Assembly (NCBI GenBank): GCA_038248345.1
Contig: JBBRXO010000002.1
Coordinates: forward strand, 6,506 to 70,505
Length of the DNA stretch: 64,000 nucleotides
Reading direction: 5' to 3'
Source: Armatimonadota bacterium
GTDB lineage: Bacteria > Armatimonadota > Hebobacteria > CAIYQO01
Shown: in pieces, positions 7,204 through 43,575 of the stretch
Numbering within the stretch: position 1 is the first letter of the stretch
How the letters are laid out: the number at the start of each line of letters is the position of its first letter
Made by a program: the position numbers and the translations under genes
The notes under the pieces: model-generated
What the model was told of the DNA's origin: nothing
Database searches by the model: none
Seen by the model: the letters and a program-made list of their open reading frames with translations, nothing else

Positions 7204-7215
7204 AATAATCCCTCC

Positions 7216-16676: not shown

Positions 16677-16785
16677 TTGGGGCACATGGCATGTGCCCTC
16701 TATACGGGATATGGGATTATATGACCAATTGTAAGGTATGATTACGACATGGGCACAAGCCTTTTGCCCCTATAATCGGGTTGTT
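16677..16785 (+). repeat. Double-hairpin intergenic repeat, copy A (GGGGCACATGG/CATGTGCCC ... GGGCACAAGCC/TTTTGCCCC)
   Basis: About 90% identical to 43467..43575 and reverse-complement-similar to 19865..19958. Confidence 0.7.
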
Positions 16786-16856
16786 GTTTGCTTGCCGCTC
16801 AATTTTTCGGCTTACAATTATGTACAGATTCTCTGCGTGCCGATATTTCAACCCCA

Positions 16857-17960
16857 CTACCCCAGCACCTTCTCCAACGCGGCAACGAATTTTTTATTTT
16901 CCGCTTCCGTCCCGAAGGTCACCCTGATCATTGTCGGGTAGCCGAAGATGTCGCCAGTGCGTACGATCACTCCCTGTTTCAGCAACTGCTGGAACACCTC
17001 ACGGCACGGTTTGCCGGTATCTACCAGCACAAAGTTGGCCTCACTGGGGACGTAGGTAAGACCCAGCCGATCAAACGCGCCATAGAGCAGCACCTTGCCC
17101 GCTTCGTTGGCGGCGATACTACGCGGGATCTGCTCGGGATCGTTGAGGCTGGCGATGGCCGCCCACTGCGCCAGATTCGCCACGTTGAATGGCTCGCGCA
17201 CCTGGTTCAACGCCGTCATCACCTCCGGGCGGCTACTCACTCCATAGCCGACGCGCAAACCTGCGAGGGCGTAGATCTTCGAAAAGGTGTGCAACACGAT
17301 GACGTTTTTGCCCGCCTTCACATACTCCATCGCCGAACCAAAGGCCGGGTTGGTCGCATACTGATAATATGCCTCGTCCAGCACCACCAGCACGTGCTCC
17401 GGCACGCGTGCAATGAAGGAATCCACTTCCGCCTTAGTATTCACCGCTCCAGTGGGGTTGTGCGGGTTGGCGATATACAACAGTTTTGTGTTGGGGGTGA
17501 TCGCTGCCAGCATCCCCTCCAGATCATGAGCGAAATCAGCGCGCAGCTCCACCTTCACCGGGACAGCGCCCATCAATAAGGTGCTGATCTCGTACATACT
17601 GAAAGGCGGGTCGCCCATCACCACTTCGTCGCCCGGCTCCAGATAGGCAGTGGCGAGGAAATGCATTACCTCGTCGCTGCCGCGTCCGGCGATTATCTGC
17701 CCGGCTTCCACGCCGAGAGTAGCCGCCAGTGCTGTGCGTAATTCAAAGCTATCGTTATCGGGATAGAGGCGGACATCACGCAGGTGCTCCTGCATCGCCG
17801 CAACTGCCAGCGGTGACGGCCCCAGCGGGTTCTCGTTCGACGCCAGTTTGATGATCGACTTCGGATCCAGTCCCAACTCACGTGCCACTTCCTCAATCGG
17901 CTTCCCCGGCGAATACGGCGTAATCGCGTCAATAGCTGCTCTGTATGATGTCTTACTCAT
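16857..17960 (-). CDS. hisC: Histidinol-phosphate aminotransferase
   Basis: KLASNENPLGPSPLAV..., class II aminotransferase motifs, about 367 aa. Confidence 0.8.
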   Translation of the reverse strand: MSKTSYRAAIDAITPYSPGKPIEEVARELGLDPKSIIKLASNENPLGPSPLAVAAMQEHLRDVRLYPDNDSFELRTALAATLGVEAGQIIAGRGSDEVMHFLATAYLEPGDEVVMGDPPFSMYEISTLLMGAVPVKVELRADFAHDLEGMLAAITPNTKLLYIANPHNPTGAVNTKAEVDSFIARVPEHVLVVLDEAYYQYATNPAFGSAMEYVKAGKNVIVLHTFSKIYALAGLRVGYGVSSRPEVMTALNQVREPFNVANLAQWAAIASLNDPEQIPRSIAANEAGKVLLYGAFDRLGLTYVPSEANFVLVDTGKPCREVFQQLLKQGVIVRTGDIFGYPTMIRVTFGTEAENKKFVAALEKVLG

Positions 17961-18066
17961 TGGTTCTCCTATCGCATAACTCTTTGCACTATTTTATCTC
18001 TTTCTCCTTTTAGAAGCAAACCATAAGGTCTGGTCAATCATTCAATAAAATGCTCTCTGTGCTTCT

Positions 18067-18160
18067 AATTCACAGGATTTCAGGATACGACAAAGATATC
18101 AAGGATAAAATATATATCTTATCCTTCCAATACACACTATCCTGTATATCCTGTGAATTA
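18067..18160. promoter_or_regulatory. Nested palindromes upstream of amt (aattcacaggat ... atcctgtgaatt, inner aaggataa/ttatcctt); candidate operator
   Basis: 12-bp perfect inverted repeats about 70 bp apart, read directly from the sequence. Confidence 0.3.
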
Positions 18161-18314
18161 AAACTATACAATCAACTGCTACGTAACAAACATTTAACAA
18201 TTCGACACATCCCGGCAATCTGCGTACACAGCCGCGCAACATTGAGTGGATATCATATAAACGTAACCTTCACACTTGCGTGGAGATATTGTATCCAGAA
18301 AGGGAGGAGTAACG

Positions 18315-19841
18315 ATGAAAAAGATGAGAGAACACCTTGAAGGTATCTCGATGTGGCGACTGGCAATTCTGGTCGCTATGCTGCTGACGCTGGGCGCGGT
18401 AGCGATGGCACAGGGGGCAGGCGCTGATGTGCTGCCTATGGATGCGCAAGCCATTACCGATGCTGTAAAAGATGCGAAGTCCGCTGGTGTTTCAGCGGGA
18501 GATACCGCGTGGATGCTCATGGCCACCGCGCTGGTACTCCTCATGACTCCGGGGCTGGCGCTCTTCTACGCAGGTATGGTACGCCGCAAGAATGCACTCG
18601 GAACTATCATGCAAAGCTTTATGGCCATGGCAGTCATCAGCATTCAATGGGTATTGATCGGCTACACGCTGGCCTTTGGCCCCACCATTAACGGGTGGAT
18701 CGGCGGCATGTCGTGGGCAGGTTTGAACGGCGTCACCGGCGTGCCCAATGCCGATTATGCGGCGACCATTCCGCACTTGGTCTTTATGGCGTTCCAAATG
18801 ATGTTCGCCATCATCACCCCGGCGCTCATCTTCGGCGCAGTGGCAGAACGTATGAAGTTCAAGGCTTTCATAATCTTCCTGCTGCTCTGGGCGACCATTA
18901 TCTATGATCCGCTGGCACACTGGGTATGGGGCTTCAACGGCTTGTTGCGCCCTGGGCAATTATTCGCCCAACTTGGCTTCGGCAGTGGCGCCATGGCTTT
19001 GGACTTCGCTGGTGGTCTAGTAGTGCACATCTCGGCTGGTATCACCGCACTGGTGGCAGCGCTGGTACTCGGCAAGCGCCGCGGCTATCCGCATGAACCA
19101 ATGCCACCGCACAACCTGCCCATGACCGTTCTCGGCGCTGCTCTCTTATGGTTCGGTTGGTTCGGCTTCAATGCCGGCTCTGCTCTGGGAGCCAATGGAT
19201 TGGCGGGCTACGCCTTCGTCAACACCAATACCGCCACTGCCGCTGCAGTACTGGCCTGGGTATTTATCGAATGGATGCACCATGGCAAGCCGACTGTCCT
19301 CGGTGCGGCCTCCGGCGCGGTGGCTGGCCTGGTCGCCATTACCCCTGCTGCTGGCTTTATTCAACCGTGGGCGGCCATCCTTATCGGCCTGGCGGCTGGT
19401 GGTATCTGTTACGGAGCCGTCAATCTGCGCTTCAAGCTCGGATACGATGACAGCCTCGACGCTTTTGGCGTACACGGCATCGGTGGTATGCTCGGCGCTA
19501 TTCTCACCGGTGTCTTCGCCACCACCGCAGTCAACCCGGCGGGCGCCAACGGACTGCTCTACGGCAACCCGGCGCAATTGGGAATCCAATTGTTATCGGT
19601 TTTGATCTCGGTAGTATTCTGCGGCGTGGGCGCATTCCTGCTGCTCAAGCTTACCAGTCTGGTCACCGGCGGCCTGCGCCTCTCCAAGGCCGAGGAAGCC
19701 GAAGGTATGGATATCAGCGAACACGGCGAGAATGGCTACAACCTGGGCGACATCCCACTGGGACACGGCGGCAGCCCCGCCCCGGTAGGCCATCACCCCG
19801 CCCCCATTCCCTCGCTGGCAGCAGCGAAGGCCATGGAGTAA
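18315..19841 (+). CDS. amt: Ammonium transporter (Amt family)
   Basis: Amt-family motifs (DFAGGLVVHISAG..., GAVAERMKF); start chosen at MKKMREH with a GGGAGGAG RBS. Confidence 0.85.
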   Translation: MKKMREHLEGISMWRLAILVAMLLTLGAVAMAQGAGADVLPMDAQAITDAVKDAKSAGVSAGDTAWMLMATALVLLMTPGLALFYAGMVRRKNALGTIMQSFMAMAVISIQWVLIGYTLAFGPTINGWIGGMSWAGLNGVTGVPNADYAATIPHLVFMAFQMMFAIITPALIFGAVAERMKFKAFIIFLLLWATIIYDPLAHWVWGFNGLLRPGQLFAQLGFGSGAMALDFAGGLVVHISAGITALVAALVLGKRRGYPHEPMPPHNLPMTVLGAALLWFGWFGFNAGSALGANGLAGYAFVNTNTATAAAVLAWVFIEWMHHGKPTVLGAASGAVAGLVAITPAAGFIQPWAAILIGLAAGGICYGAVNLRFKLGYDDSLDAFGVHGIGGMLGAILTGVFATTAVNPAGANGLLYGNPAQLGIQLLSVLISVVFCGVGAFLLLKLTSLVTGGLRLSKAEEAEGMDISEHGENGYNLGDIPLGHGGSPAPVGHHPAPIPSLAAAKAME

Positions 19842-19864
19842 CCGGGGGAACCAAAAGGACGTAT

Positions 19865-20319
<455 letters not shown>

Positions 20320-20342
20320 CGAACAACTGAATACGGTCTGAA

Positions 20343-20385
20343 CAGCAGGGTCTACTCCATCGGGGTAGGCCCTGCTGGTTTGATG
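20343..20385 (+). terminator. Stem-loop after glnK (cagcagggtctac...gtaggccctgctg followed by a gttt run)
   Basis: Inverted repeat read directly from the sequence. Confidence 0.35.
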
Positions 20386-20544
20386 AACCCCTGAGAACGC
20401 CAATCTCCGCATTGGCCCGTAGCCCGCGCCCGCCGTGGCGCGTGTCAAGTTGCACGCAGGATGCGTGCGCTCCCAGCAACCTACCTCCCACCTCCAGTTG
20501 ACGTCACCCCCTCATTACCCGCATAATTTACCGGGGGACTTATT

Positions 20545-22293
20545 GTGGATTTAATATTGACGGGGAATCAGGCTATTGCGCGTGCTGCACGCGATGCGGG
20601 GGTGGCGTTGGGGGTCGGGTATCCGGGCACGCCCTCTACTGAGGTTTTGGAGACGCTGGTGACACTGGAGGGTGGACACGCGCAGTGGGCACCCAATGAG
20701 AAGGTGGCGCTGGAGGTGGGCATCGGGGTATCCTTCGGCGGGGCGCGCGCGCTGGTGACGATGAAGCATGTGGGCGTGAATGTCGCCGCGGACCCGCTTT
20801 TCACCGCTGCCTACACGGGCGTTGCCGGTGGACTGGTGGTGATGGCCGCCGATGACCCCGGCATGCACTCCTCGCAGAATGAGCAGGACAGCCGCCACTT
20901 CGCCCGCGCGGCCAAGCTGCCGATGCTGGAGCCGTCGGACTCGCAGGAGGCCTACGATTTCACCCGCCTGGCTTTCCAGCTCTCCGAAGAGTACGACACC
21001 CCGATAATGCTGCGCACCACCACACGCCTCTCGCACGGCAAAAGCACCGTCCACGAGGCACCCGCGGAGACTGACCTGCCGGCACCGGTAGCGCCGCAGA
21101 ACCCGCAGAAATACGTGATGGTCCCCGGCTTTGCCCGCGCCCGCCACCTGGTGGTGGAAGACCGGCAGGTGCGTATCCAGGAATGGGCGGAGAGCGCGGA
21201 TATCACCAAAACCGAATACCGCGATAAAAAGATCGGCATCATCACCAGCGGCGTCACCTACCAGTACGTGCGCGATGTCGCCCCGGAGGCGAGTACGCTG
21301 AAGCTGGGCATGGTGAACCCGCTGCCGATGGCGGCAATTATCGCTTTTGCCAAAGAGATTGAAACCTTATATGTAGTAGAGGAGCTGGACCCGATTATTG
21401 AAGAACAGGTACGCGCTGCCGGTATCACTGTCATCGGCAAGGCGAACTTCCCCATCTTCGGCGAGCTGCTCCCCGGCATTATTGCCAAAGGCTTGGGGCT
21501 AGAAGTGAAACCCTCTGCTACTGCCACCTCTGGTCTGCCCACGCGCCCGCCCAGCCTCTGCCCCGGCTGCCCGCATCGTGGCGTTTTCCTGCTGTTAAAG
21601 AAAAACGGGCTGACGGTGAGTGGTGACATCGGTTGCTATACGCTGGGCGTCTTCGCCCCTCTCAATGCCATGGACACCTGCGTCTGCATGGGCGCATCGG
21701 TCGGCGTGGCGCATGGGCTGGAGCGCGCGGGGCTGGATCCCGCGAAAATCGTTGGCGTCATCGGCGATAGCACTTTCCTGCATAGCGGCATCACCGGCGT
21801 GCTGGATATGGTGTACAACGGCTCCCACGGCACTATCATGATCCTGGACAATAGCATCACCGCCATGACGGGGCGGCAGCAGCATCCAGGCACCGGCAAG
21901 ACCCTCGACGGCATGCCCGCCCCCTCTGTTGACCTGGAAGGCCTACTGAAATCCCTCGGTGTACAGGATGTGACAGTGCTCGACCCCTACGATTTAGCCA
22001 ACACCGAGGCAGAGCTTAAGCGCGCGCTGGCCTATCCCGGTGTCTCGGTAATCATCGCCCGTCGTCCGTGTATGCTCATCCCGCATGAGATTCGGCCCAA
22101 GCTCACGGTAGACGCCGACCTCTGCAAGCGCTGCGGCAAGTGCCTACGCCTGGGGTGCCCGGCCACCGGCAAAATAGCCGAGGAGTACAACGGCAAAACC
22201 CGCTACCTGCCGGTAATTGACGCGCAACTCTGCAACGGTTGCGGCGTCTGTGCGCAACTGTGCGCCTTTGGGGCGTTGAAGGTAAAGGAATAA
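20545..22293 (+). CDS. iorA: Indolepyruvate:ferredoxin oxidoreductase alpha subunit (TPP-binding; C-terminal 2x[4Fe-4S] motifs)
   Basis: MDLILTGNQAIARAARDAGV... and CKRCGKC/CNGCGVC ferredoxin motifs; GTG start; TTGACG-N17-CATAAT promoter candidate at about 20497..20527. Confidence 0.8.
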   Translation: MDLILTGNQAIARAARDAGVALGVGYPGTPSTEVLETLVTLEGGHAQWAPNEKVALEVGIGVSFGGARALVTMKHVGVNVAADPLFTAAYTGVAGGLVVMAADDPGMHSSQNEQDSRHFARAAKLPMLEPSDSQEAYDFTRLAFQLSEEYDTPIMLRTTTRLSHGKSTVHEAPAETDLPAPVAPQNPQKYVMVPGFARARHLVVEDRQVRIQEWAESADITKTEYRDKKIGIITSGVTYQYVRDVAPEASTLKLGMVNPLPMAAIIAFAKEIETLYVVEELDPIIEEQVRAAGITVIGKANFPIFGELLPGIIAKGLGLEVKPSATATSGLPTRPPSLCPGCPHRGVFLLLKKNGLTVSGDIGCYTLGVFAPLNAMDTCVCMGASVGVAHGLERAGLDPAKIVGVIGDSTFLHSGITGVLDMVYNGSHGTIMILDNSITAMTGRQQHPGTGKTLDGMPAPSVDLEGLLKSLGVQDVTVLDPYDLANTEAELKRALAYPGVSVIIARRPCMLIPHEIRPKLTVDADLCKRCGKCLRLGCPATGKIAEEYNGKTRYLPVIDAQLCNGCGVCAQLCAFGALKVKE

Positions 22294-22296
22294 ATC

Positions 22297-22887
22297 ATGC
22301 CATTAACAACGAACATCTTGATAGTAGGCGTAGGCGGGCAGGGGATTGTGCTGGCCGGGGATGTCATCGGGCTGGCGGCGCGGCTGAGTGGGTTGGAGGC
22401 GAAAGCTTCCGAGATTCACGGTATGTCGCAACGCGGCGGGTCGGTGGTCTCCGAGGTGCGCTATGGGATACATGTCTCCTCGCCGCTGATTCCCCCGCCC
22501 GGCGCCAACTTTGTGCTGGCTTTCGAGATGCTGGAGGCGCTGCGCGGGCTGGAGCGGATGCGCCCCGGCGGGCTGGTTATCGCCAACCGGCAGCGCATCA
22601 CCCCGGCGTCGGTCACCTACGGCAGCGCCGTCTACCCGGAGGACGCCGAGGAGCAACTGCTGGCCGCCTGCCCCAAAGCGGTGATCATCGACGCACTGGC
22701 GGAGGCGCAAGCCGCGGGCAACGCGCGCGCCGTAAATAGCGTACTGCTGGGGATGCTGGCGCACCACACGGCACTACCGCGCCAGAACTGGGAAACAGCG
22801 CTGGCGCAGACCGTGAAGCCACAGTATGTAGAGGTAAACCTCGCCGCTTTCGCGCGCGGGTATGAGCGGGCGGAGCGTAATGTATAG
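22297..22887 (+). CDS. iorB: Indolepyruvate oxidoreductase beta subunit
   Basis: MPLTTNILIVGVGGQGIVLAG... about 196 aa, directly after iorA. Confidence 0.75.
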   Translation: MPLTTNILIVGVGGQGIVLAGDVIGLAARLSGLEAKASEIHGMSQRGGSVVSEVRYGIHVSSPLIPPPGANFVLAFEMLEALRGLERMRPGGLVIANRQRITPASVTYGSAVYPEDAEEQLLAACPKAVIIDALAEAQAAGNARAVNSVLLGMLAHHTALPRQNWETALAQTVKPQYVEVNLAAFARGYERAERNV

Positions 22888-23022
22888 TGCATAACAGACC
22901 CAACTACCGCTATGCGGTAGTTGGGTTCACTGCACATAGCGATGATTTTTTGCCATTTCCTCCACAAACTTTTAAATACCGTGATATAATATTGCATTAG
23001 TATCCTACCCGGGAGGTCTATC

Positions 23023-23799
23023 ATGCGATACAAGATATCCATGCCACGCGGCTTCGGCGTTGTAGAGGCGATTATTGTCGTTGCTGCGTTGGTGATAGTA
23101 GCCGTTATCCTGTTCCCGGTATTAACGCCAAGCAATCAAAAAAATACCACGGCACTTCACTGCACGAATAACCAACGCCAGATCGCCCTTGCATGGTCGG
23201 AGTATGTCCAACGACATGATGAAACCTTCCCTGATGCCAGTATTGCCTGGACCCTATTTAAAAAAGAAAATGCACCAGTTTATAGATGCCCAGATCATAG
23301 TGCTGCAGTGAATGGATACGTGTTCAATGCGAGACTCAGCTAAAGAAAGCTGAGCGATCTTAGCTATCCCCTCTCAACCACTTGTTTCTTAACTGCTGAC
23401 GGAAAAAGCAGTGAAATTTCTGGGACATACGCCAATGTAGCCTATGATCAAACGAATATTGATATGAAGCGGCACAAACCTTATTTTTGTAGTAGCTTCT
23501 TAGATGGTCATGTAGAATATTTGAAGGGGAAGGATATCACCACCTGGCTCTCAGCAAAGAGCCAGCAATACACGTCGCAGACTTGCCCAGCCGGGGTGGC
23601 ACAGCCGGTTACCACCACCTTCGCATCGGCAACCTGGGCTGTGACCAGTGGCGTGGTGGATGACGTGAGCGGGCTGCCGAAGGCGGATATGCTGGGTGGG
23701 GACGTGACCTTTAGCAAGGCGGGTAGCTATACCATTACCGCCACCGGGTCGGCGGTGGTTGCGCCACCTACTACGGTTTATGAGTTCAGGGTGAAGTAA
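23023..23799 (+). pseudogene. DUF1559 / H-X9-DG family protein with a prepilin-type N-terminal helix (RGFGVVEAIIVV...), interrupted by a single in-frame TAA at 23341..23343 (track ORFs 23023..23343 and 23464..23799 are in the same frame)
   Basis: My own in-frame translation across the gap: ...VFNARLS*RKLSDLSYPLSTTCFLTADGKSS...YFCSSFLDGHVEYL matches the DUF1559 C-terminal H-X9-DG-like FxDGHV motif; perfect TATAAT -10 plus GGGAGG RBS upstream. Confidence 0.5.
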
Positions 23800-23844
23800 G
23801 AAGTCCCCGTAGCATGGGCGTCCCACCCATGAGAACGGGGATTA

Positions 23845-23990
23845 ACACCACGCGCTAAAGCACGTGGCTATAAGATCATGCATCCTGAAGGGCGCTGGAC
23901 ATTCGATTCCGAAAAGTCCGCGAAGGCGAACGAACGGCGCGTAGCGCCCTGCAGCCGGGATTTCAATCCCAGCGGAAAGAGGTTTTGCAT
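23845..23990 (-). repeat. Modular hairpin repeat family 2, copy a (reverse orientation)
   Basis: Reverse complement aligns to 31940..32070 (gggattgaaatcccgg, gtccgccttcgcggac modules). Confidence 0.6.
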
Positions 23991-24203
23991 TTACCTCAAA
24001 TGTGGTATGGCAGGAATATCGTTTTTAGCGATAATCCGTCCTCCCTGGCCTGACCATGAACGACCAGGCGAACAGGAGGGACGCTAAAAAATCTATACTT
24101 GGGGGAGGTATGGACAGTATCTCATATTGCTGATATTCTATCCTTATTATGTGGACGAGATATCTCTATATAATGTTATTGTTATATTTCTCTATGGGGT
24201 GAA

Positions 24204-24325
24204 AATCTGATGTCGCAGAAACCCTTAGCCCAGCCGTTCACGAATATGCGCCAGGCTATCGTATTGAACACTCGAAAACCAGCCTTGAAACTTGGGACTT
24301 AAAACTGTCTTGCAGGAGAAAAGCC
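24204..24325 (+). promoter_or_regulatory. Conserved upstream leader element (aatctgatgtcgcRgaaWccctt ... ttgaacact.aaaacc ... CTTGRAA heptamer array) immediately 5' of paaK
   Basis: Aligns with 31362..31515 and the minus strand of 33877..34010. Confidence 0.5.
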
Positions 24326-25645
24326 ATGTCAAACACCGGCCATAGTTCAACCATTTACAACCCTCTATATGAATGCATGGAACGCGAGGAGATGCGGGCG
24401 CTGCAACTGCGCCGCATGAAGGACGTGGTCTCGCGCGTCTACAATCATATCCCGGCCTACCGCCAGAAATGCGAGGAGCTGGGCGTCACTCCGATGCACA
24501 TGCAGACGCTGGCCGATATCGCTCACTTTCCCTTCACCATCAAGACAGACTTCCGCGATAATTACCCCTACGGCATGTTCAGTGTGCCCATTGAGGAAGT
24601 AATCCGCATTCACATGTCCAGTGGCACCACCGGCAAACCCACAGTGGTAGGCTATACCAGGAACGACATCGACCTGTGGTCACAGGTGATCGCGCGTTCC
24701 CTCGGATGCGCAGGCGTCACCCGCAAAGACATCGTGCAAGTATGCTACGGCTACGGGCTTTTTACCGGTGGCCTGGGCATACATTACGGGGCGGAGTTGT
24801 ACGGCGCCACCGTTATCCCGGTTTCGGGTGGTAACACTGCCCGCCAGGTGATGTTGATGGAGGATTTCGCCTCCACCGTCATCGCCTCCACTCCCAGCTA
24901 TGCGCTGTATCTGGCCGAGGTCGCCGCCGAAGCGGGGGTACTCGACAAGCTGAAACTACGCATCGGCATCTTCGGCGCCGAGCCGTGGTCAGAGGGGATG
25001 CGCCGGGAGCTGGAGAGCAAACTGAAGCTGAAGGCGCTGGATATTTACGGCATGTGCGAGCTGATAGGCCCGGGAGTGAGCAATGAATGCGAACACCAGC
25101 AGGGACTGCACATCTTCGAGGATCACTTCTACCCGGAGATCATCAACCCGGATACCGGTGAAGTACTCCCCGAAGGGAGCATCGGTGAGCTGGTGGTGAC
25201 CACCATGACCAAAGAGGCGGTGCCCATCATCCGCTACCGCACGCGCGATATCACCTCGCTCAACTACGAGAAATGCTCCTGTGGCCGCACCATGGTGCGT
25301 ATGGATCGCGTCACCGGGCGCAGCGATGATATGCTCATCATTCGCGGCGTCAACGTCTTCCCGTCGCAGATTGAGGATGTCTTAACAACCATCGAAGGAA
25401 CCGCACCGCACTACCAGCTACATGTGCGTCGCGAAGGCAACCTGGATGAGATGGAGCTATGGGTAGAGGTAACCGAGGCGGTGCTCAACGACGAAATCCG
25501 CTCGCTGGAAACCCTCAGCCGTCGTATCGGCAACGCGCTACAAAGCGTCCTCAACGTCTCCTGCCGCATAAAACTGGTAGAGCCAAAGTCAATCCAGCGC
25601 AGCGAAGGCAAAGCGAAACACGTTATTGACCATCGCGTGCTGTAA
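24326..25645 (+). CDS. paaK: Phenylacetate-CoA ligase family (aryl-acetate CoA ligase)
   Basis: N-terminal [22 protein letters not shown] and [16 protein letters not shown]-binding motif typical of PaaK. Confidence 0.75.
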
Positions 25646-25743
25646 ATCATGTTTGAAGGTTCGGAGACATGACCACTTGAAATATACGGTAACAACCAGG
25701 GTAACAGCCATCGATAACCACCTCGTATGCGGGGTGGCATAAA

Positions 25744-26328
25744 GTGAGTCAGTTACTCTTCCCTTGCGCAGTTATCATCTTTTTTGGCATCACCTTTTTT
25801 CTGCGTTGGCGTCGAAAACAAATAGAAGATGCTATGCGACGGGAAGATTATGCCAAATGCCAGCGTATTCTGGCGCGTGATCCACGCAACGCAGCGGCCT
25901 ACGCTATGCTGGGGGAGTTACTGGAACGGGACGGCAAACCTGCAGAGGCGTTGAAGGCCTACGAGGCGTCGTTGGCTAACGACCCCAAACAAATAAATAT
26001 GAATTACCGTGTGGAGTGCCTGCAGGATGAGCAGGCATTGCGGGAAAGTGGGCAAATACGGTGCCCGCTTTGCCGCACCATTCAGGTAAAAAGCCCCGGC
26101 AGATGCTGGCAATGCGGCACTGTGTTGCACATGCGCGGTGCCGTGCTGCAAAGCTTGGGGTATCGCGGTATTATTATATTCGCTCTGCTGCTTATTTGCC
26201 TGGTTTCAGCATACGTTTTTGCTGCTCTGCATAAACCTGATCTGGCTTATGGAGCAATAGGCGGCTTTCTCTTCTGCATATTGGGGTTGATCATCAACCA
26301 TAGATTTGGACGACGTAAAAACAATTAG
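25744..26328 (+). CDS. Membrane protein with TPR-like segment and CxxC...CxxC zinc ribbon, two C-terminal TM helices; function unknown
   Basis: Translation features only. Confidence 0.3.
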   Translation: MSQLLFPCAVIIFFGITFFLRWRRKQIEDAMRREDYAKCQRILARDPRNAAAYAMLGELLERDGKPAEALKAYEASLANDPKQINMNYRVECLQDEQALRESGQIRCPLCRTIQVKSPGRCWQCGTVLHMRGAVLQSLGYRGIIIFALLLICLVSAYVFAALHKPDLAYGAIGGFLFCILGLIINHRFGRRKNN

Positions 26329-26338
26329 GAGGCTAGTT

Positions 26339-31905: not shown

Positions 31906-31939
31906 AGGGGTAGATCATAAGAGAGAGGTGTTTGCAATA

Positions 31940-32130
31940 CTCTTTCCCGCTGGGATTGAAATCCCGGCTGCAGGGCGCTGCGCGCCGGTCGTCCGCCTTC
32001 GCGGACTTTTCTGAATCGAATGATAGCGCGCTTTAGCGTACTTGCCGTTGTTAGCCACCTCTTTCAGGGGGTGGCGCCGGGAATCGCAATCCCGCTCTAA
32101 TGGGCGGGACGCCACTGCTACGGGTAGCGG
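31940..32130 (+). repeat. Modular hairpin repeat family 2, copy b (longest copy: gggattgaaatcccgg, gtccgccttcgcggac, atgatagcgcgctttagcgtacttgccgttgttagccacctctttcagggggtggc modules)
   Basis: Modules recur at 23845, 41465, 44868 and 49700/49818. Confidence 0.65.
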
Positions 32131-35157: not shown

Positions 35158-36101
35158 TGCGACACAATAACGGGTATAAGCAAAATACGCCATCGGGTAA
35201 TACTGTAGCTCGTGAGCTAGGGGATCGTGGTATGTCTACCGCTGGTGAGGAAAATAATAATATACCGGGGGAATACCTGGAATCACAACAGGTAACCGCT
35301 AACATGCGCTGGCGTCGCCAGCGGTTGGCGTTGTATCGCCGCGTGTGGGCAGTGGCATGGACATTGATACTCGCCTTCCTGGTGGAGGCATGGATCGCGG
35401 CGTGGTTTTCGCCGCGCAATTACATCTATCGATTGGAGACACGTAATACTGACTCCATGACGGAAGAAGAAGTTATCCGTCTCGCGGCTGTGAAACCGAA
35501 GACAAACTACTTCCGTGTTCCCTTGCAGGAAATCGCTACCCGGATCAAGTCGCAAGATCCGCGCGTGGATAACGTCATCGTTGAGCGTGGAGCCATGGGG
35601 ACGCTGATATTGACGGTGAACGAGCGCAAAGCGGTATGCCGTCTGGGTACCAGCGAACCGCCGATGTACCTGGATGAAAAGGGCTACCTATTCACGCGAC
35701 CAATACCAACGCCAAACCTGGTGCCAATTGTCACCGCCATTGAAGCGCCCACGGAGAAAAAAATGGGAGAAAAGCTGACAGAGGCCTACGTTGTGCCGGT
35801 GTTGAAAGCGGTCGTGGCATTGCCCGCCAAAACTAACAAAGGCTTCCTTATTGAAGCTGCCAGCTTGAAGGTAGACGAGAAGAGTGGCGCCACCTATGAA
35901 TTAAGCAATGGCATCATCATCGAATATGGTACCCTCACCTACCCGGAACAGAAGGCGGAGGTAATTAAGAACTTGATCGACAATGCGATAGAAGCAGGCA
36001 ATGCACCGGAGAATATATTATCCTTGAATGTCACCGGCGTGGATAACAAAATGTTAAGAGGGTCGTACACCCCGCGGACCCCGACTGGGGGGACAAATTG
36101 A
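35157..36101 (+). CDS. ftsQ: Cell division protein FtsQ/DivIB-like (TM anchor plus POTRA-like domain)
   Basis: Position after ddl, single TM (VWAVAWTLILAFLV), POTRA-like region; exact start uncertain. Confidence 0.5.
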   Translation: MRHNNGYKQNTPSGNTVARELGDRGMSTAGEENNNIPGEYLESQQVTANMRWRRQRLALYRRVWAVAWTLILAFLVEAWIAAWFSPRNYIYRLETRNTDSMTEEEVIRLAAVKPKTNYFRVPLQEIATRIKSQDPRVDNVIVERGAMGTLILTVNERKAVCRLGTSEPPMYLDEKGYLFTRPIPTPNLVPIVTAIEAPTEKKMGEKLTEAYVVPVLKAVVALPAKTNKGFLIEAASLKVDEKSGATYELSNGIIIEYGTLTYPEQKAEVIKNLIDNAIEAGNAPENILSLNVTGVDNKMLRGSYTPRTPTGGTN

Positions 36102-36871
36102 TGAGAGTTTATGTTCCTATAAGTAAACCACAACCATGGGTGTTGCCGGTGACGTTAGTCTGCCTAGCGTTGGGTGCCCTGATCGCCTTGATGATCATCA
36201 GCTCCAGCGTGAAAGATGACGCCACCACTAGCGCTTCACTCGGTAAAACACCACAGGAGATCACCGCGCTGCAACAGGAGAACAAGCAGTACGAAGATGA
36301 GATCGCCAAGCTACGGGCAGAAAAAGATGAAGCCGTGAAAAAATCATCCACCGCCGCCGAGACCAACCAAGGGATTCAAAAGGAGATGGACGATCTGCGC
36401 ATGCGCGCTGGCACCGCCTCCATGATCGGCCCGGGCATCGCCATCACTCTCGACGACACCAATAACACCAAATTCCCCTCGGATACCGGAGGCATGAAGG
36501 CATTGATCGTGCACGACTGGGACATGCTGATGCTGGTTAATGAGCTGCGTGCCGCTGGCGCAGAGGCCATCAGCGTCAACAACGAACGCGTGGCGGGCGA
36601 AAGCCCCATCCGCTGTGTCGGCCCGGTAATAATGGTAAATAGCCACCAGGTGGCCCCCCCTTTCAAGGTTTTGGCCATCGGTAAAACGGACACCCTCTAC
36701 GGTGCAGTGAAACTGCCGCAAGGGGTGCTGGACAATCTGATGCTGCTGGGCATCCAGGTGCAGGTAGACAAAAAAACCAACATCACCATACCCGCGCTGA
36801 ATGTGCTACCTCCTATCGAATCCGGTAAAATAGCAACTGACGTTAAGAAGGAGGGTGGCCCCGGCCGTTGA
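36098..36871 (+). CDS. DUF881-family membrane protein (YlxW/YlxX-like; coiled coil plus MIGPGIAITLDD motif)
   Basis: DUF881 signature G.GI.ItLdD; ATGA overlap with ftsQ. Confidence 0.55.
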   Translation: MMRVYVPISKPQPWVLPVTLVCLALGALIALMIISSSVKDDATTSASLGKTPQEITALQQENKQYEDEIAKLRAEKDEAVKKSSTAAETNQGIQKEMDDLRMRAGTASMIGPGIAITLDDTNNTKFPSDTGGMKALIVHDWDMLMLVNELRAAGAEAISVNNERVAGESPIRCVGPVIMVNSHQVAPPFKVLAIGKTDTLYGAVKLPQGVLDNLMLLGIQVQVDKKTNITIPALNVLPPIESGKIATDVKKEGGPGR

Positions 36872-36894
36872 CGCCGCTGCCAATACTAATATAA

Positions 36895-37284
36895 ATGTGG
36901 CTCCCCATCCTTGCACTTTTCATCGGCTTTATGGCGGTATTCCTGCCGCAACAGCATCTGAATAATATGCTGAAGCCGGAATATACCCCGTACATCGGCA
37001 TCGCCCTGGTGGCGGGCATCGACTCGATCGTCGGTGCCATCCGCGCGCTGGCCGAGGGGCACTTCAACGACCGCGTCTTCGTCAGCGGCTTTTTCACCAA
37101 CGCCATTCTGGCCGCTGGCCTGCTTTACCTGGGAAATACACTCCGTATCGAACACGTGGCCGTGGCCATCATGGTGGCACTGGTCTTCCGGATATTCAAC
37201 AACTTTGGCTTCGTCCGCCGCTTCGTCTTCGCCCGCCTCTTCGAAAAGAAACTAAGCGCAGACAATTCATTCCCGGAGCCGTAG
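36895..37284 (+). CDS. sbp: Small basic protein Sbp (DUF1290) membrane protein
   Basis: About 129 aa, two TM helices; follows DUF881 as in the Bacillus ylxW-ylxX-sbp arrangement. Confidence 0.5.
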   Translation: MWLPILALFIGFMAVFLPQQHLNNMLKPEYTPYIGIALVAGIDSIVGAIRALAEGHFNDRVFVSGFFTNAILAAGLLYLGNTLRIEHVAVAIMVALVFRIFNNFGFVRRFVFARLFEKKLSADNSFPEP

Positions 37285-37309
37285 CATGGGGAAAGTGAAA
37301 AGGCTTTAA

Positions 37310-38704
37310 ATGGGTATTCTCACCAGTCAGGGAAGGATTATCGGCATCTGGTTCCTCGTAACCAGCCTGATCGGCTTCGTGCATGCATCAGCCATCATGT
37401 ACATCTTTTCTGTCGTCATCATTGGCGGCTTACTTACCGCCTGGGTGCTGGCCTTATGGGGGGCCAAAGACATTACTATCTCACGTGAGGTTCACGCTTC
37501 CACCGTCACCAGTGGTGATCCACTGCCCACTAAACTGAGTATCCATGAGTCCAAAGCGCGCTGGCGCATGCTGGAATTGCACGATAACCACACAAACCTG
37601 ATTAACAATGAAGCCAGCCATCGGCAGCTGACGCTATTATTGGAAGATACCCGCTCCACCACCGCCACCATTGGCGGCAAAAGACAGCAGATGACGCAAC
37701 TGGGTGGGAAGAAGCGCGAACTGCTGATACCTGACATGCTCCGCTTCCCCTACCGCGGCCTCTATCGCCTGGGGCCGATTGAACTGCAGAGCTATGACCC
37801 CTTCGGCCTTATCTACGTTGTCCGTAAGATTGAAATAAATAAGGAAGTGATCGTCTACCCACGCGCGCTCTCCATGCCCGACGCCCTCCTCACCGGGGCG
37901 GGCGGACGGCAGGAATCGGCTATTCGCCCCTCCGGGCGCGCGGGCGAAAGTGCGGAGTTCCACAGTATCCGCCCCTACACCGAAGGCGACGACCTGCGCC
38001 GCGTACACTGGAAAGCCTCGGCCCACTCGGATAAAATGGTGGTAAAAGAGTACGAATATCGCAACGCCGGGGCAGTACAGGTGATCCTCGACTTGCAGGG
38101 GAACGTCCACGCGGGCAGCAGCTACAATTCGACACTGGAGAAGGCTATCACTCTCTCCTCCTCAATTCTCACCCACGTCATCGCCGCAGGCAACCAGATA
38201 GGTCTGTTCACCACTGGCGAGAAGATCATCCAGCTACCGCAGGAATCCGGGCAGCGGCAACTACACCGAGCATTGGAGACGCTGGCGTTGGCAAAAGCCG
38301 ACGGCACCGCCACCTTGGCACAAACACTATTGAGCAATGAGGCCCCTTCCTCACGTCGCTGTACCACCATCGTTATCACACCTTCGCTGGATGTCAATCT
38401 CATTGGCGCACTCTTAAATCTACGCGGCAAATCCGCCCAGCTCTTGTTAGTGCTCCTTGATCCCAGTCAATACCTGATCAATGAGCAACCCGATCCCGCC
38501 GCCCGCCCCAATACGCTGAAGGGCATAAGCAATTATTTCGAGGGCCTTGACCTGTTGAAAACCGATTCAAAAAAAGTTGAAGCCCAACGCAATGAACACA
38601 AACGCCTGCTGAACGCCGCCATCGCCGCTGGCATCGAGGTAGTATCGCTGGATTCCGAAGCACCGCTAAATAAAGCGCTGCAAGCGATTGGACGGTTTAC
38701 CTGA
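37310..38704 (+). CDS. DUF58 domain protein (vWA-like; N-terminal TM helices)
   Basis: GRAGESAEFHSIRPYTEGDDLRRVHWKASAHSDKMVVKEYE is the DUF58 core motif. Confidence 0.6.
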   Translation: MGILTSQGRIIGIWFLVTSLIGFVHASAIMYIFSVVIIGGLLTAWVLALWGAKDITISREVHASTVTSGDPLPTKLSIHESKARWRMLELHDNHTNLINNEASHRQLTLLLEDTRSTTATIGGKRQQMTQLGGKKRELLIPDMLRFPYRGLYRLGPIELQSYDPFGLIYVVRKIEINKEVIVYPRALSMPDALLTGAGGRQESAIRPSGRAGESAEFHSIRPYTEGDDLRRVHWKASAHSDKMVVKEYEYRNAGAVQVILDLQGNVHAGSSYNSTLEKAITLSSSILTHVIAAGNQIGLFTTGEKIIQLPQESGQRQLHRALETLALAKADGTATLAQTLLSNEAPSSRRCTTIVITPSLDVNLIGALLNLRGKSAQLLLVLLDPSQYLINEQPDPAARPNTLKGISNYFEGLDLLKTDSKKVEAQRNEHKRLLNAAIAAGIEVVSLDSEAPLNKALQAIGRFT

Positions 38705-38861
38705 TTCAGGTCTGCAAGTTGATTCTATCATTGTACTCCAACTCCTTGCCTTCCAATCGCCCAACGGGTACACTGAATGTGTGAATGATATAGAAGTTCT
38801 TGATTCCTCATGTTGGCGCGTGCCTGGTACCACTCCGCCGGTCAATTCTCCAGCGTTGCCG

Positions 38862-40628
38862 ATGACGCGGGCGGAGATGACGGCGCGGGGGTGGGAATGT
38901 TGCGACATTATCCTCGTCACCGGTGATGCCTACGTCGATCACCCATCTTTCGGCACGGCGATTATCGGACGCTGGCTGGAATATCTGGGTTACCGCGTGG
39001 GGGTTATCGCGCAACCAGACCCCAAAAATGTCGATGCTTTTCGCGCGTTAGGACGACCTGCCCTCTGCTGGGGGGTAACTGCAGGGAACCTGGACAGCCA
39101 ACTGATGAAATACACTGCTATGCGCAAAATGCGTAGCGATGACGCCTACACCCCCGGCGGGCAAGCAGGAAACCGCCCCGCCAATGCCTCTATGGTCTAC
39201 ACCAGTTGCGTACGGCACGCCTACAAGGGTGTACCGGTGATCCTCGGTGGCGTGGAGGCCTCATTGCGGCGCTTCGCCTATTACGATTTCTGGTCGGATG
39301 CTGTACGCCGTTCGGTGCTGGTGGATGCCAAAGCCGACCTCATTGTCTACGGGATGGGCGAGCGCGCCATGGCGGAGATCGCGCAACGCCTGCGCAACAA
39401 CGAACCACTGACCGACATCCGCGGCACCGCCGAGATGCGCAAGTCACTGGACGACCTAACCGACGTGCATGTACTACCTGCCTTTGAAGAGGTAAGTCAG
39501 CCGACTCCGGAAGGTAAGCTGGCCTTCTCGCGCATGGCACGTGATATCGACAACTTCACCAATCCTGACCTGGCTACCATGTTGGCACAGCGCCATAATG
39601 AGCGCTATCTGCTGGTGCATCCGCCCGCGGCGCCGCTGAGCACCGCCGAGATCGACGTGGTCTATGACTTGCCCTTCACCAGACACCCACACCCGGCCTA
39701 CGCGGGGAAGAATATCCCCGCCTATGAGATGATCAAGGACAGTATCACCACCCACCGTGGCTGCTACAGCGGGTGCAGCTTTTGCGCATTGGGGGCACAT
39801 CAGGGTACGGCGATCAGCTCACGTAGCGCGGATAATGTGCTGCATGAAATAGCCCGGTTGACGCATGACCCCGAATTCCACGGCACGGTGAGTGACCTGG
39901 GCGGCCCGACCGCCAACATGTATGGTACCGGTTGCACACTGGGGCGCGCACGTTGCGCCGAGAAGAGCTGCCTCTTCCCCACCCTTTGTACAAATTTGCG
40001 CACCGACCACGGCCCACTGCTAGCGCTAATGCAAGCGGCCAGTGCGGTACCGGGGGTCAAGCATCTCTTCATCACCAGCGGTATCCGTTGCGACCTGGCT
40101 TTGTCGCCGGGCGGAAAGGGATACATCGAGGAGCTGGTAAAGTCACACGTTGGAGGGCGGTTGAAGATCGCCCCGGAGCATATCTCCACGCGCGTGCTAC
40201 GTGCCATGCACAAATATCCGCCGGAGATCTACCGGCAATTTCTATCACACTTCCGTAGTTGCGCCACAAAATCAGGCCGCCCCTATCAGGTGATAGAATA
40301 TTTCATCAGCGGCCACCCTGGCAGCACACTGGCCGATATGATCGAGCTAGCCGTTTACCTACGTCGTGAGCGCATCGCCCCCGAGCAGGTGCAGGACTTC
40401 TACCCCACCCCGCTCACGCTGGCAACGGCAATGTTCTACACCGGCCTCGACCCCACCACCGAGAAGCCCATCTATGTGGCGCGTAGTGACCGGGAAAAGG
40501 CCCTGCAGCGTGCCCTGCTGCTCTGCCAGAAGCCGGAATTCCACAACAAAGCCCGCACCGCCCTCCGCGCCGCTAAACGCGGGGATTTAATCGGAAACGG
40601 GCCTAATTGCCTGGTGCCAGAAAAGTAG
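38862..40628 (+). CDS. ygiQ: YgiQ family (UPF0313) radical SAM protein
   Basis: N-terminal MTRAEMTARGWECCDIILVTGDAYVDHPSFG and CYSGCSFCAL radical-SAM cysteine cluster. Confidence 0.7.
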   Translation: MTRAEMTARGWECCDIILVTGDAYVDHPSFGTAIIGRWLEYLGYRVGVIAQPDPKNVDAFRALGRPALCWGVTAGNLDSQLMKYTAMRKMRSDDAYTPGGQAGNRPANASMVYTSCVRHAYKGVPVILGGVEASLRRFAYYDFWSDAVRRSVLVDAKADLIVYGMGERAMAEIAQRLRNNEPLTDIRGTAEMRKSLDDLTDVHVLPAFEEVSQPTPEGKLAFSRMARDIDNFTNPDLATMLAQRHNERYLLVHPPAAPLSTAEIDVVYDLPFTRHPHPAYAGKNIPAYEMIKDSITTHRGCYSGCSFCALGAHQGTAISSRSADNVLHEIARLTHDPEFHGTVSDLGGPTANMYGTGCTLGRARCAEKSCLFPTLCTNLRTDHGPLLALMQAASAVPGVKHLFITSGIRCDLALSPGGKGYIEELVKSHVGGRLKIAPEHISTRVLRAMHKYPPEIYRQFLSHFRSCATKSGRPYQVIEYFISGHPGSTLADMIELAVYLRRERIAPEQVQDFYPTPLTLATAMFYTGLDPTTEKPIYVARSDREKALQRALLLCQKPEFHNKARTALRAAKRGDLIGNGPNCLVPEK

Positions 40629-40651
40629 AATCGGCGTATCACATTGATCCA

Positions 40652-41110
40652 TCATTGCGTGAGCGGCAGATACTCATCCAGCGTGATAACCATATGCTGC
40701 GTCCCTATCAGCTTGCGTGCGAGCGCCATATCTGCTGTCAATAATGGTACACTCTTCTGCTCCGCCAGCGCCACATAAACGGCGTCGTAGGCAGAGATAT
40801 TCAACTCGCAGGCCAGCTGCAGCGCGCGTTTGCTCAATTGTTTGAGTGGGGTGGTTATCAGTCCTAAAGCTGATAATTCATCAACTCTGCTCGCTCCAGT
40901 TGCGGTATCAATTTCCCCACGCTGAGCTTTTTTCCAGAGAATGTTAGCACATTCAATATAGAGGAGATCTGGGACAAAAAGAACAAATCCGTCACTCTCA
41001 AACATGTTTTCGAGAAGTTCGCGAAGTTCATGACTTCCGCGCTCTGGCGCTACATACTTGATAAGTACGCTGGCATCATATACACAACGCGGTGGCAACT
41101 CAGTTCTCAT
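40652..41110 (-). CDS. vapC: PIN-domain toxin (VapC family)
   Basis: 152-aa PIN-like protein with conserved acidic residues; overlaps the upstream small RHH gene by 4 nt. Confidence 0.6.
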   Translation of the reverse strand: MRTELPPRCVYDASVLIKYVAPERGSHELRELLENMFESDGFVLFVPDLLYIECANILWKKAQRGEIDTATGASRVDELSALGLITTPLKQLSKRALQLACELNISAYDAVYVALAEQKSVPLLTADMALARKLIGTQHMVITLDEYLPLTQ

Positions 41111-41355
41111 CGTTCCCGATCCTCACGCAACAAATCAGTTGTAGTTTTGCCATCAATTGAAGGCTTAAACAGGTAGTCGCTCTCTCTAAGACGTGTTAAT
41201 GATGCCAGACGCTCACTTTTTATCCGCTTCTTCTCCAATTCGACTTCCACGAGTTTGATTACTTCAGTACCGACAGATTTTTTTTCTGCTTTCGCCATCG
41301 CTTTCAACGCCTGATACATCTCATCAGGAAAGTCTCGTACATATAATGTCGCCAT
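41107..41355 (-). CDS. vapB: Antitoxin, ribbon-helix-helix (CopG/Arc-like)
   Basis: MATLYVRDFPDEMYQALKAMAKAEKKSVGTEVIKLVE; AAGGAG RBS; start chosen at MATLY rather than the track's 41406. Confidence 0.5.
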   Translation of the reverse strand: MATLYVRDFPDEMYQALKAMAKAEKKSVGTEVIKLVEVELEKKRIKSERLASLTRLRESDYLFKPSIDGKTTTDLLREDRER

Positions 41356-41464
41356 AGTAGATTCTCCTTTGACAGTATTATACCCATAATAATTGCAAAT
41401 GTGCAATCGTATTTGTGTGATAATGCAAGCAATAGTAAAGAGTTACGCTGGGACTAAAGTACCG

Positions 41465-41595
41465 GCTGCGTGGCATTAATGCCGGTAGTCCGCCTTCGCG
41501 GACTTTACATATATGGTAATAGCGCGCTTCAGCGTGCTTGCAGTTGTTAGCCACCTCGTTTACGGGGCGGGACGCCCATGCCACGACTATCTCTT
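41465..41595 (+). repeat. Modular hairpin repeat family 2, copy c
   Basis: gtccgccttcgcggac plus atagcgcgcttcagcgtgcttgcagttgttagccacctcgtttacggggcgggacgcc. Confidence 0.6.
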
Positions 41596-43380
41596 CGTCT
41601 GTGCCCACACCTCTTCTGCCTTTGTCACCAGCTCGTCGATCATCTGCAGGCCGTCGTCCCAGAAGGTGGGGTCGTTGATGTCGATGCCTGCCTTTGCCAT
41701 GATGTCTGCCGGGCGCGCGGAGCCGCCGGCGCGGAGGATATCCTGGTAATGCGGGACGAAGGAGGCGCCCTCTTTTTTATAGCGTGCGTAAAGCGCCATC
41801 ACCATCAGCTGGCCGAAGGCATAGGCGTAGACGTAGAAGGGCGTGTGGATGAAGTGCGGGATATACATCCAGAAGCAGGCGTGTCCTTCGCCTAACTCTA
41901 CCGAGTCGCCGAACATCTCTTGCAGGTTCGTCTGCCAGATTTCATTTACCTGTGCGGGGGTCAGCTCTCCCTTTGCACGGCGTTCGGTGTGTACCCCTTG
42001 CTCGAAGCGGTACATGGCGGTCTGGCGGAAGACAGTGGCGAAGACGTCCTCGATTTTGCCGGTGAGCAGTGCCAACTCCGCCATCGGCTCATGCTCTTCG
42101 GCTAAAAGTTCGTTGAAGGTGAGCATCTCGCCGAAGACGCTGGCCGTCTCCGCTGCTGCCAGCGAGGGGTAGTACTGCAGGAACTTCTGCCCGCCCGCGT
42201 AGAGGTCGTGGATGCCGTGGCCCAGCTCATGCGCCAGCGTCATCACGTCGCGCTTTTTGCCGAGGAAGTTCATCAGCACGTAGGGGTGCCAGTCCGGTGC
42301 CAGCCCGGCGCAGAAGGCTCCGCTGCGCTTGCCGTGACGCGGTTCGGCATCCACCCACTTCTCATTGATAAAGCGATCGACCATCTCACCCATCTCGGGG
42401 GCAAAGGCAGTGTAGGAATCGCGCACAATCTTCACCGAGTCATCCCAGCTTATGGTGGCGGTATCGCTGAGAATAGGCGCGTAGCGGTCATAATGGTAGA
42501 GCTTATCCAACCCCATGATCTCGCGCTTCAGCTTATAGTACCGGGCCACAGTATCATAGTGTTCTACCACCGAGTTGATCATAGTGTGTACGGTATCGGT
42601 ATCCACTTCGTCAGAGAGGTGACGTGATTCCTCCGCGTGATTGAAGTGTGTCAGGCGGTCGTTCACCGATTTGTCATAGGCCAGCACGTTGGTAACGTAG
42701 GTGAAGAACTTCTCATTTTTGCTCAACGCGGCGGATATCCCCTCAGCGGCGGCTTTGCGCACGGCGCGGTCGGGATCGTAGGATTTATTCAGGATCTCGG
42801 ACTCAGATAGTTCGACGGTCTCACCATTCAGCGTCATGGTGAAGGTCATGGCGGCGATGGTCTCATCGAAGAGGCGCGAGAAGGCCTGCCCGCTGGTGAC
42901 GGATTTCTCCATCAGGATTCGCTCTTCCGCCTCGCTCAGACGGTGCGGACGTGCAGCGCGCTCATGCTCCAGGTAGTGCCGATAGGCAGCGGTACCCGTA
43001 TCGGAGAGCAATTCGGCAAACTTCTCCTCGGATAACTCCACTAGCTCCAACTCAAAGAATAGCAACTGCTGCGCTGCTGCTACCGACCGCTCCTGCATCC
43101 GCTGCATCAGCGCCCCATGCGCCGGGTTACTCGTATCGCCACTGAAAAGCAACTCGGAATAAGCCGCCGGAAAGGCCAACGTCCGCTGAATCCCCTCATA
43201 TTCACCCAGGGCTACCGCGAACTCCGCCGGCGACAACTGCCCCACCCGCCCCGCGCAGGAGACAGCAAATGACGCCACGCGCACATCCACCTCCGCTAGC
43301 GCACTATCAATCTTCGGGTCCGTCACCCCCGCAAACAAATCCGTCAAATCCCAGGTAACTGGTGTATTACTCATCATCAT
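41587..43380 (-). CDS. pepF: Oligoendopeptidase F (M3 family metallopeptidase)
   Basis: HELGHGIHD zinc-binding motif, about 597 aa. Confidence 0.8.
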   Translation of the reverse strand: MMMSNTPVTWDLTDLFAGVTDPKIDSALAEVDVRVASFAVSCAGRVGQLSPAEFAVALGEYEGIQRTLAFPAAYSELLFSGDTSNPAHGALMQRMQERSVAAAQQLLFFELELVELSEEKFAELLSDTGTAAYRHYLEHERAARPHRLSEAEERILMEKSVTSGQAFSRLFDETIAAMTFTMTLNGETVELSESEILNKSYDPDRAVRKAAAEGISAALSKNEKFFTYVTNVLAYDKSVNDRLTHFNHAEESRHLSDEVDTDTVHTMINSVVEHYDTVARYYKLKREIMGLDKLYHYDRYAPILSDTATISWDDSVKIVRDSYTAFAPEMGEMVDRFINEKWVDAEPRHGKRSGAFCAGLAPDWHPYVLMNFLGKKRDVMTLAHELGHGIHDLYAGGQKFLQYYPSLAAAETASVFGEMLTFNELLAEEHEPMAELALLTGKIEDVFATVFRQTAMYRFEQGVHTERRAKGELTPAQVNEIWQTNLQEMFGDSVELGEGHACFWMYIPHFIHTPFYVYAYAFGQLMVMALYARYKKEGASFVPHYQDILRAGGSARPADIMAKAGIDINDPTFWDDGLQMIDELVTKAEEVWAQTKR

Positions 43381-43466
43381 CCGCCTTTATTGGTTTACTG
43401 TTGGGTTTATAATTGGCTGTTGATGTGGGGAACTCCTGCTGATTTTATATTTTGGAGATAAATGGG

Positions 43467-43575
43467 TAGGGGCACATGGCATGTGCCCTCAATACGGGGT
43501 ATGAGATACATGACCAATTGAAGGTATGGTTACGATGTGGGCACAAGCCTTGTGCCCCTACAATCGGGTTGTGGG
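43467..43575 (+). repeat. Double-hairpin intergenic repeat, copy C
   Basis: About 90% identical to 16677..16785. Confidence 0.7.

Follow-up and report, generated by a model that had tools for sequence, protein, structure and literature searches.

A dispersed double-hairpin element in an Armatimonadota genome as a probable dimer of GTAG-tagged REPs

We analysed a 64,000-nt stretch of an Armatimonadota genome (GenBank assembly GCA_038248345.1, contig JBBRXO010000002.1, positions 6,506 to 70,505; hereafter the window), in which an earlier sequence-only reading had pointed to three copies of a double-hairpin element, one of them between the ammonium transporter gene amt and the P-II gene glnK. 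Each copy is most probably a head-head (HH) dimer of GTAG-tagged repetitive extragenic palindromes (REPs), comparable to the REP doublets forming hairpins (REPINs) and the bacterial interspersed mosaic elements (BIMEs), which is non-autonomous and presumably spread by a REP-associated tyrosine transposase (RAYT). The element is a known kind of dispersed bacterial repeat and not a new regulatory RNA; the previous description as a MITE/REP-like element (MITE, miniature inverted-repeat transposable element) is thereby narrowed on the basis of its anatomy, its tags and a link to RAYT genes. An apparently lineage-restricted REP dimer family from an Armatimonadota-like metagenome-assembled genome (MAG) is thus added to the widespread GTAG-REP/RAYT system, which matters mainly for annotation, and the hairpins between amt and glnK should not be taken for a dedicated regulatory RNA.

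Anatomy of the three copies

All three double-hairpin copies are present where the sequence-only reading had located them, as a reading of the sequence and a profile search agree, and we label them A, B and C, taking the + strand as element orientation for A and B and the - strand for C (Table 1). The unit measures about 100-110 nt and carries two GC-rich palindromes (19-20 nt) with GGG/CCC at the foot. Two palindromic hairpins per copy had been described correctly, and their stems, previously put at 9-10 bp, fold as 8 bp with a 3-nt loop, except that hairpin 2 of copy C has 11 bp and that hairpin 2 of copy A and hairpin 1 of copy C are imperfect. The distance between the hairpins is 50-52 nt rather than about 55 nt, and the motifs atacggg and ggttacgat, which had been listed as flanks, recur in all three copies as the inner spacer motifs ATACGGG and G[AG]TTACGA. 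Beyond the right tag, the 11-nt sequence AATCGGGTTGT is common to A and B. Pairwise identity is 88% for A and B (given before as about 90%), 70% for A and C, and 75% for B and C; the shared orientation of A and B, the reversal of C and the divergence of its middle part, the spacer, were all seen again. Three of the six tags, a feature absent from the sequence-only reading, are exactly GTAG/CTAC and the other three are each off by one base (CTAT corresponding to ATAG). It follows from the placement of the tags that the unit consists of two tagged palindromes, inverted, with the tags outside, and since these two differ in loop and stem bases it is a heterodimer.

The hairpin sequences GGGCACATGGCATGTGCCC (hairpin 1) and GGGCACAAGCCTTGTGCCCC (hairpin 2) are confined within the window to the three copies. 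With up to three mismatches on both strands, hairpin 1 gave 8 matches and hairpin 2 gave 11, where dinucleotide shuffles expect 0.01 and 0.04, respectively, and an nhmmer profile built from the three copies detected no other full copy across the window. Each hairpin is able to fold by itself as single-stranded DNA (ssDNA; -4.2 to -11.9 kcal/mol). The complete unit forms a single long hairpin at -27 kcal/mol (z = -5.9), because its outer 26 nt, which in copy B form inverted arms, are 88% complementary; for copies A and B, both the minimum-free-energy and the consensus structures pair the two hairpins with each other.

Such arms and a size of about 100 nt would also suit a classical MITE of a DDE transposon with terminal inverted repeats of about 26 bp, or a miniature IS200/IS605 derivative (palindrome-associated transposable element, PATE), the more so as IS200/IS605 derivatives likewise rely on subterminal hairpins and produce no duplication. 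We consider this origin very unlikely. Target-site duplications, proposed earlier as a check, were looked for at A, B and C by reading the sequence, and no direct repeats were found at the ends of any copy, which therefore lack a target-site duplication. Moreover, the supposed terminal repeats are self-folding hairpins with the GTAG tag typical of REPs, the end hairpins of IS200/IS605 elements are direct and not inverted, though the mechanism is close, and there is no transposase of any kind nearby in the window.

A dimer of tagged REPs matches published systems more closely. GTAG REPs are defined by a GC-rich stem-loop of 20-40 bp, an unpaired GTAG (or GYAG, GTRG, GYRG, GTMG) and tens to thousands of copies. 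The 24 families described from eight phyla by Di Nocera, De Gregorio & Rocco (2013, PMC3733652) have stems of 5-13 bp and short loops; HH dimers with the tags outside are their commonest arrangement, with spacers mostly of 20-100 bp that tend to be conserved, and they lie mainly between unidirectional and convergent open reading frames (ORFs), where a tag that supplies the TAG stop of a flanking ORF has already been described. Like these HH dimers, the present element has tagged short GC-rich stem-loops, inverted around a partly conserved spacer of 50-52 nt, lies between unidirectional ORFs, and with the tag of copy B gives a TAG stop; unlike them, its tags are degenerate in two of three copies and its host is an Armatimonadota-like MAG. 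The comparison with the 24 families is one of architecture and does not extend to the sequence of the GGGCACA...TGTGCCC stem. REPINs (Bertels & Rainey 2011, PMC3116915; PMC3337134) similarly consist of inverted REPs and a spacer that form one long hairpin of about 100 nt, and are extragenic, non-coding and free of target-site duplications, but they make up a large near-identical population with a cognate single-copy RAYT, whereas here three copies are 12-30% apart. In E. coli, BIMEs also combine inverted REPs with linkers and carry GTAG at the hairpin foot, where TnpA-REP needs it for recognition (PMC3479197, PMC8266576); their stems are long and bulged, whereas ours are short and perfect, and the linker gave no evidence of IHF or gyrase sites.

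Tagged hairpins and RAYT genes in other genomes

A bare hairpin pattern without the tag was scanned against 185,579 genomes (one per species; the home genome was not returned), yielding 51 exact hairpins in 49 loci, where we estimate that roughly 17-35 matches would be expected by chance. GTAG/CTAC stands directly at the foot in 23 of these 51 hairpins, compared with about 0.4 expected by chance. The hosts include Planctomycetota (Pirellulales, Phycisphaerales), Chloroflexota (Chloroflexia), Cyanobacteria, Armatimonadota (Armatimonadia) and others, and several genomes each give many hairpin loci.

Two of the loci adjoin RAYT-like genes. In a Pirellulales MAG (L006), eight hairpins within 1.7 kb are arranged as GTAG-hairpin...hairpin-CTAC dimers around and inside a RAYT-like ORF (6503-7360, - strand) with the HUH motif NHIHGI and the tyrosine motif WQRNYYEHIIR. 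In a Chloroflexia MAG (L019), the product of an ORF (6571-7278, + strand) is 40% identical to the L006 protein, and one hairpin immediately precedes the start codon while a second is internal to the gene. With the in-frame REP insert removed, the L006 and L019 proteins score 68.6 and 77.5 bits against NF047646, 'REP-associated tyrosine transposase', just below the 80-bit equivalog cutoff (E 1e-19 to 1e-22; profile positions 7-133 of 146), and the L006 protein passes Pfam Y1_Tnp with 32 bits. There are more than 7,900 homologues of these proteins, some of them named 'REP element-mobilizing transposase RayT' by JGI. The insert begins with VGADGVRP and ends with GTRRVPL, GAYHAPL or GASLAPL, which is the translation of GTAG-hairpin / hairpin-CTAC. 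Some homologues contain tandem expansions, such as a repeated GVRPQ unit.

The insert pattern in L006, L019 and their homologues fits TnpA-Y1 subclass 2.4 (Quentin et al. 2018, PMC6006769) and is therefore already known. REPs of this subclass have three G-C pairs at the stem foot and a 5' GT[AG]G tag, occur in 'double-foot' variants, and are also found as in-frame insertions in the transposase gene, between HUH and Y. The three foot G-C pairs and the tag are found in our element as well, and 'double-foot' forms occur in L033 and in L010, a contig of the Armatimonadota MAG GCA_038215455.1; the home element is placed near subclass 2.4 by hairpin similarity only. Among 120 RAYT homologues, none contained peptides that the home hairpins would encode. 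What looked like part of a RAYT at the edge of locus L011 proved to be a translated REP and was rejected. The other hairpin observed in L010 is a single GGGCACAAGCCTTGTGCCCC inside a longer 30-bp palindrome between convergent genes (4250-4290), a position at which the window has instead an extra 426-aa ORF (57993-59273, - strand); the 'double-foot' REP of this contig is GTAGAGACAGGGCATAGCCCTGTCTCTAC (7043-7071).

In the proposed mechanism, a single-copy HUH/Y1 enzyme (RAYT/TnpA-REP) would recognise the ssDNA hairpin together with GTAG at its foot, and would cut and rejoin ssDNA without a target-site duplication. Copies would settle in gaps between co-directional or convergent genes. By analogy, we infer that a RAYT in this genome may move the copies.

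Several results weigh against this interpretation. A tblastn search with the L006 RAYT returned only translated hairpins from the window, which thus holds no RAYT gene; only three dimers were seen, in 64 kb; the copies are 12-30% diverged, above what a recently active REPIN population would show; and A and C carry degenerate tags. Outside the window, the exact composite of hairpin 1, spacer and hairpin 2 was absent from JGI metagenomes and IMG/VR when searched as a two-hairpin pattern, hairpin 1 with the spacer motif had no match in metagenomes, and blastn with copy B had none in plasmids and phages. Since the composite was not found in those collections, the family is so far known from one genome. 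To these points must be added that the corresponding empty sites in a relative, described below, are not clean.

An independently expressed small structured non-coding RNA family, or a set of riboswitch-like leaders, had also been suggested, and the folding check favours it insofar as the transcribed strands have more stable folds than shuffled controls (z = -3.2 to -5.7). However, this fold is simply that of the palindromes, the spacer is diverged in copy C, and the same hairpins, GTAG-tagged, adjoin transposase genes in other phyla. The whole window gave no match to Rfam 15 at gathering thresholds, and a relaxed (E-value) search with copies B and C returned generic hairpin families only (E 0.2-1; 13-20 bits versus cutoffs of 57-101). 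No compensatory change was seen in 28 predicted pairs, a comparison of three sequences with little power. Within the units there were no promoter-like sites and, scanning both strands, no terminator-like sites; without a U-tract the copies are not intrinsic terminators. We therefore regard a structured RNA family as highly improbable.

Table 1. Positions of the element's copies and their parts, and of a second repeat family, in the window
Feature	Position	Strand	Remarks
Copy A	16676..16784	+	Between 906-aa gene and hisC-like gene
Copy A, degenerate tag	16676-16679	+	GTTG
Copy A, hairpin 1	16680-16698	+	GGGCACATGGCATGTGCCC
Copy A, spacer			52 nt between hairpins 1 and 2
Copy A, hairpin 2	16751-16770	+	GGGCACAAGCCTTTTGCCCC, imperfect
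Copy A, right tag	16770-16773	+	CTAT
Copy A, tail	16774-16784	+	AATCGGGTTGT, common to A and B
Copy B	43466..43572	+	Between pepF and FAD monooxygenase ORF; most intact copy
Copy B, left tag	43466-43469	+	GTAG, exact, directly 5' of hairpin 1
Copy B, hairpin 1	43470-43488	+	Followed by 50-nt spacer
Copy B, hairpin 2	43539-43557	+	
Copy B, right tag	43558-43561	+	CTAC, exact, directly 3' of hairpin 2
Copy B, tail	43562-43572	+	AATCGGGTTGT
Copy C	19863..19960	-	Between amt and glnK; reverse orientation
Copy C, left tag	19960-19957	-	GTAG (element orientation)
Copy C, hairpin 1	19956-19938	-	GAGCACATGGTATGTGCCC, one mismatch
Copy C, spacer			52 nt, diverged
Copy C, hairpin 2	19886-19866	-	GGGGCACAAGCCTTGTGCCCC, 11 bp; followed by tag CTAT
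Second repeat family	23848-23997		
Second repeat family	31925-32075		Reverse
Second repeat family	41481-41571		
Second repeat family	44870-44925		
Second repeat family	49706-49755		
Second repeat family	49829-49877		

Gene context and relatives

Domain matches confirmed the gene neighbours named in the sequence-only reading, with one correction of placement. Copy A is flanked by a hisC-like Aminotran_1_2 gene (16857-17960, - strand) and the gene of a 906-aa Big_7/Cu_amine_oxidN1 protein (13786-16506, - strand), which heads a pilM...secretin cluster. Both genes are transcribed from the minus strand, so that in terms of transcription copy A follows hisC and precedes the 906-aa gene, and not the other way round. 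Copy B is located between pepF (Peptidase_M3; 41587-43380, - strand) and an FAD_binding_3 monooxygenase ORF (43558-44679, - strand) whose TAG stop is read, on the opposite strand, from the CTA of the CTAC tag. The element overlaps this ORF only in its final 4-5 codons and the stop codon; the C-terminus of the protein is about 13 residues longer than in homologues, and its tail ends in element-derived codons. In the monooxygenase ORF, the dinucleotide-binding GxGxxG motif is also five residues short (IIG-----ATLA versus IIGAGPAGATLA in all close homologues), and the gene may be impaired or a pseudogene. At copy C, the neighbours are amt (Ammonium_transp; stop codon 19839-19841) and glnK (P-II; ATG at 19981), and the element takes up 98 of the 139 nt between them, stopping 5 nt short of the glnK Shine-Dalgarno sequence AAGGAGG (19966-19972), which is outside it.

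Window sequence was found elsewhere only in short Logan contigs (1.3-14 kb) of run SRR19962012, and the element accounts for the breaks of this organism's short-read contigs at these points. The window is syntenic with contigs of GCA_038215455.1, and the best named protein homologues come from Armatimonadota MAGs. In the JGI contig L051, Amt is 92% identical and the gene order (secretin-pil-902aa-hisC-amt-glnK-POR) is the same as in the window, yet the element is absent from site A, from site C and from the rest of its 21.5 kb. The L051 spacers at sites A and C are shorter by about 100 and 57 nt, respectively, and at site A the homology stops exactly at the left tag, that is, between ...TTTTTTGT and TGGGGCAC. 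Neither is a clean empty site, since the intergenic DNA around them is itself diverged. For copy B no empty site was obtained, as the nearest homologue (71% identity, GCA_038215455.1) is in a different gene neighbourhood. The element was nevertheless clearly gained or lost since the split of the window lineage and the L051 lineage.

These results also bear on a possible role as operator sites of a dimeric DNA-binding regulator with TGTGCCC/GGGCACA half-sites, in favour of which the palindromes are perfect and lie in non-coding DNA. This role is extremely unlikely: the sites follow ORFs, one of them covering a stop codon, and their neighbouring genes have no functional relation; the palindromes are always paired with a conserved spacer, the orthologous promoters and spacers of the close relative are devoid of them, and unrelated phyla have the same hairpin, GTAG-tagged, at dispersed sites.

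A REP dimer at amt-glnK might nevertheless have been co-opted as a cis-acting RNA that stabilises, processes or decouples the transcript and so sets the Amt:GlnK ratio, in line with the earlier suggestion of an intra-operon attenuator, stabiliser or processing site; a REP origin would fit with this, function being the added claim. All three copies share the same orientation relative to the transcription of their flanking gene pairs, which are co-directional in each case; the first hairpin of the amt-glnK mRNA is a GC-rich 11-bp stem; intra-operon REPs are known to stabilise upstream mRNA (PMC3733652); and the amt-glnK spacers of L051 and L052 hold unrelated strong hairpins, namely CTCTCCCTGTCGGCAAATGCCGACAGGGAGAG (L051, 11525-11606) and CCCCTCCCCCGACATGCGGGGGAGGGG (L052, 7480-7534). 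The latter suggests that members of this lineage commonly have a stem-loop in this spacer, where one seems tolerated or favoured, whatever its origin. Against a role for the element itself, the shared orientation of three copies has a chance probability of 1/4, there is neither a U-tract terminator nor a compensatory change, and L051, the nearest relative, is without the element. We think co-option unlikely, if less so than the other alternatives weighed here. For a GTAG-tagged REP dimer, transcribed hairpins may incidentally shield upstream mRNA from 3' exonucleases or change the coupling of neighbouring cistrons. Given that the glnK ribosome-binding site is outside the element, that there is no U-tract and that relatives have unrelated hairpins, any effect is most likely the generic 3'-hairpin effect of REPs. 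A fuller scenario, in which uncultured Armatimonadota carry a lineage-specific REPIN population whose amt-glnK copy was co-opted for differential transcript stability or processing and replaced the unrelated hairpin of relatives, is decidedly doubtful. Should the operon indeed be modulated by its copy, a selfish repeat would once more have been co-opted as an mRNA element, which is a known theme.

Other repeats in the window

Hairpin repeats are generally abundant between the genes of this genome. Unrelated to the REP dimers is a second dispersed family with the core ...GTGGCTAACAACGGCAAGTACGCTAAAGCGCGCTATCAT... and a GCCACC...GGTGGC hairpin (Table 1), which showed no match to Rfam at gathering thresholds. 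At 49707-49877 it forms a MITE-like unit of two 49-nt arms (86% complementary) that are 73 nt apart, and inverted 98-nt copies at 23900-23997 and 31925-32022 (88%) bracket a 7.9-kb segment. Beside another copy of this family and upstream of the monooxygenase gene, the GC-rich palindromes CCCCTTCCCGCGC...GGGAAGGGG (44736-44835) are 30-nt inverted arms. A short repeat, CTTCGTG[TC]CTTCGTGGTTCA..., occurs twice with 74% identity (501-539 and 47418-47456). Finally, a MITE-like element at 61228-61405 (ATTGTCTTAGAACCTTGATTCACCTGATTAGAGGATT...) has two inverted arms of 37 nt (95% complementary) separated by 104 nt, and is located just upstream of a split FGE-sulfatase (PF03781) gene (61914-62659, + strand), in which the overlapping ORFs 61929-62378 and 62246-62662 correspond to the N- and C-terminal halves of the domain; this gene probably carries a frameshift or is a pseudogene.

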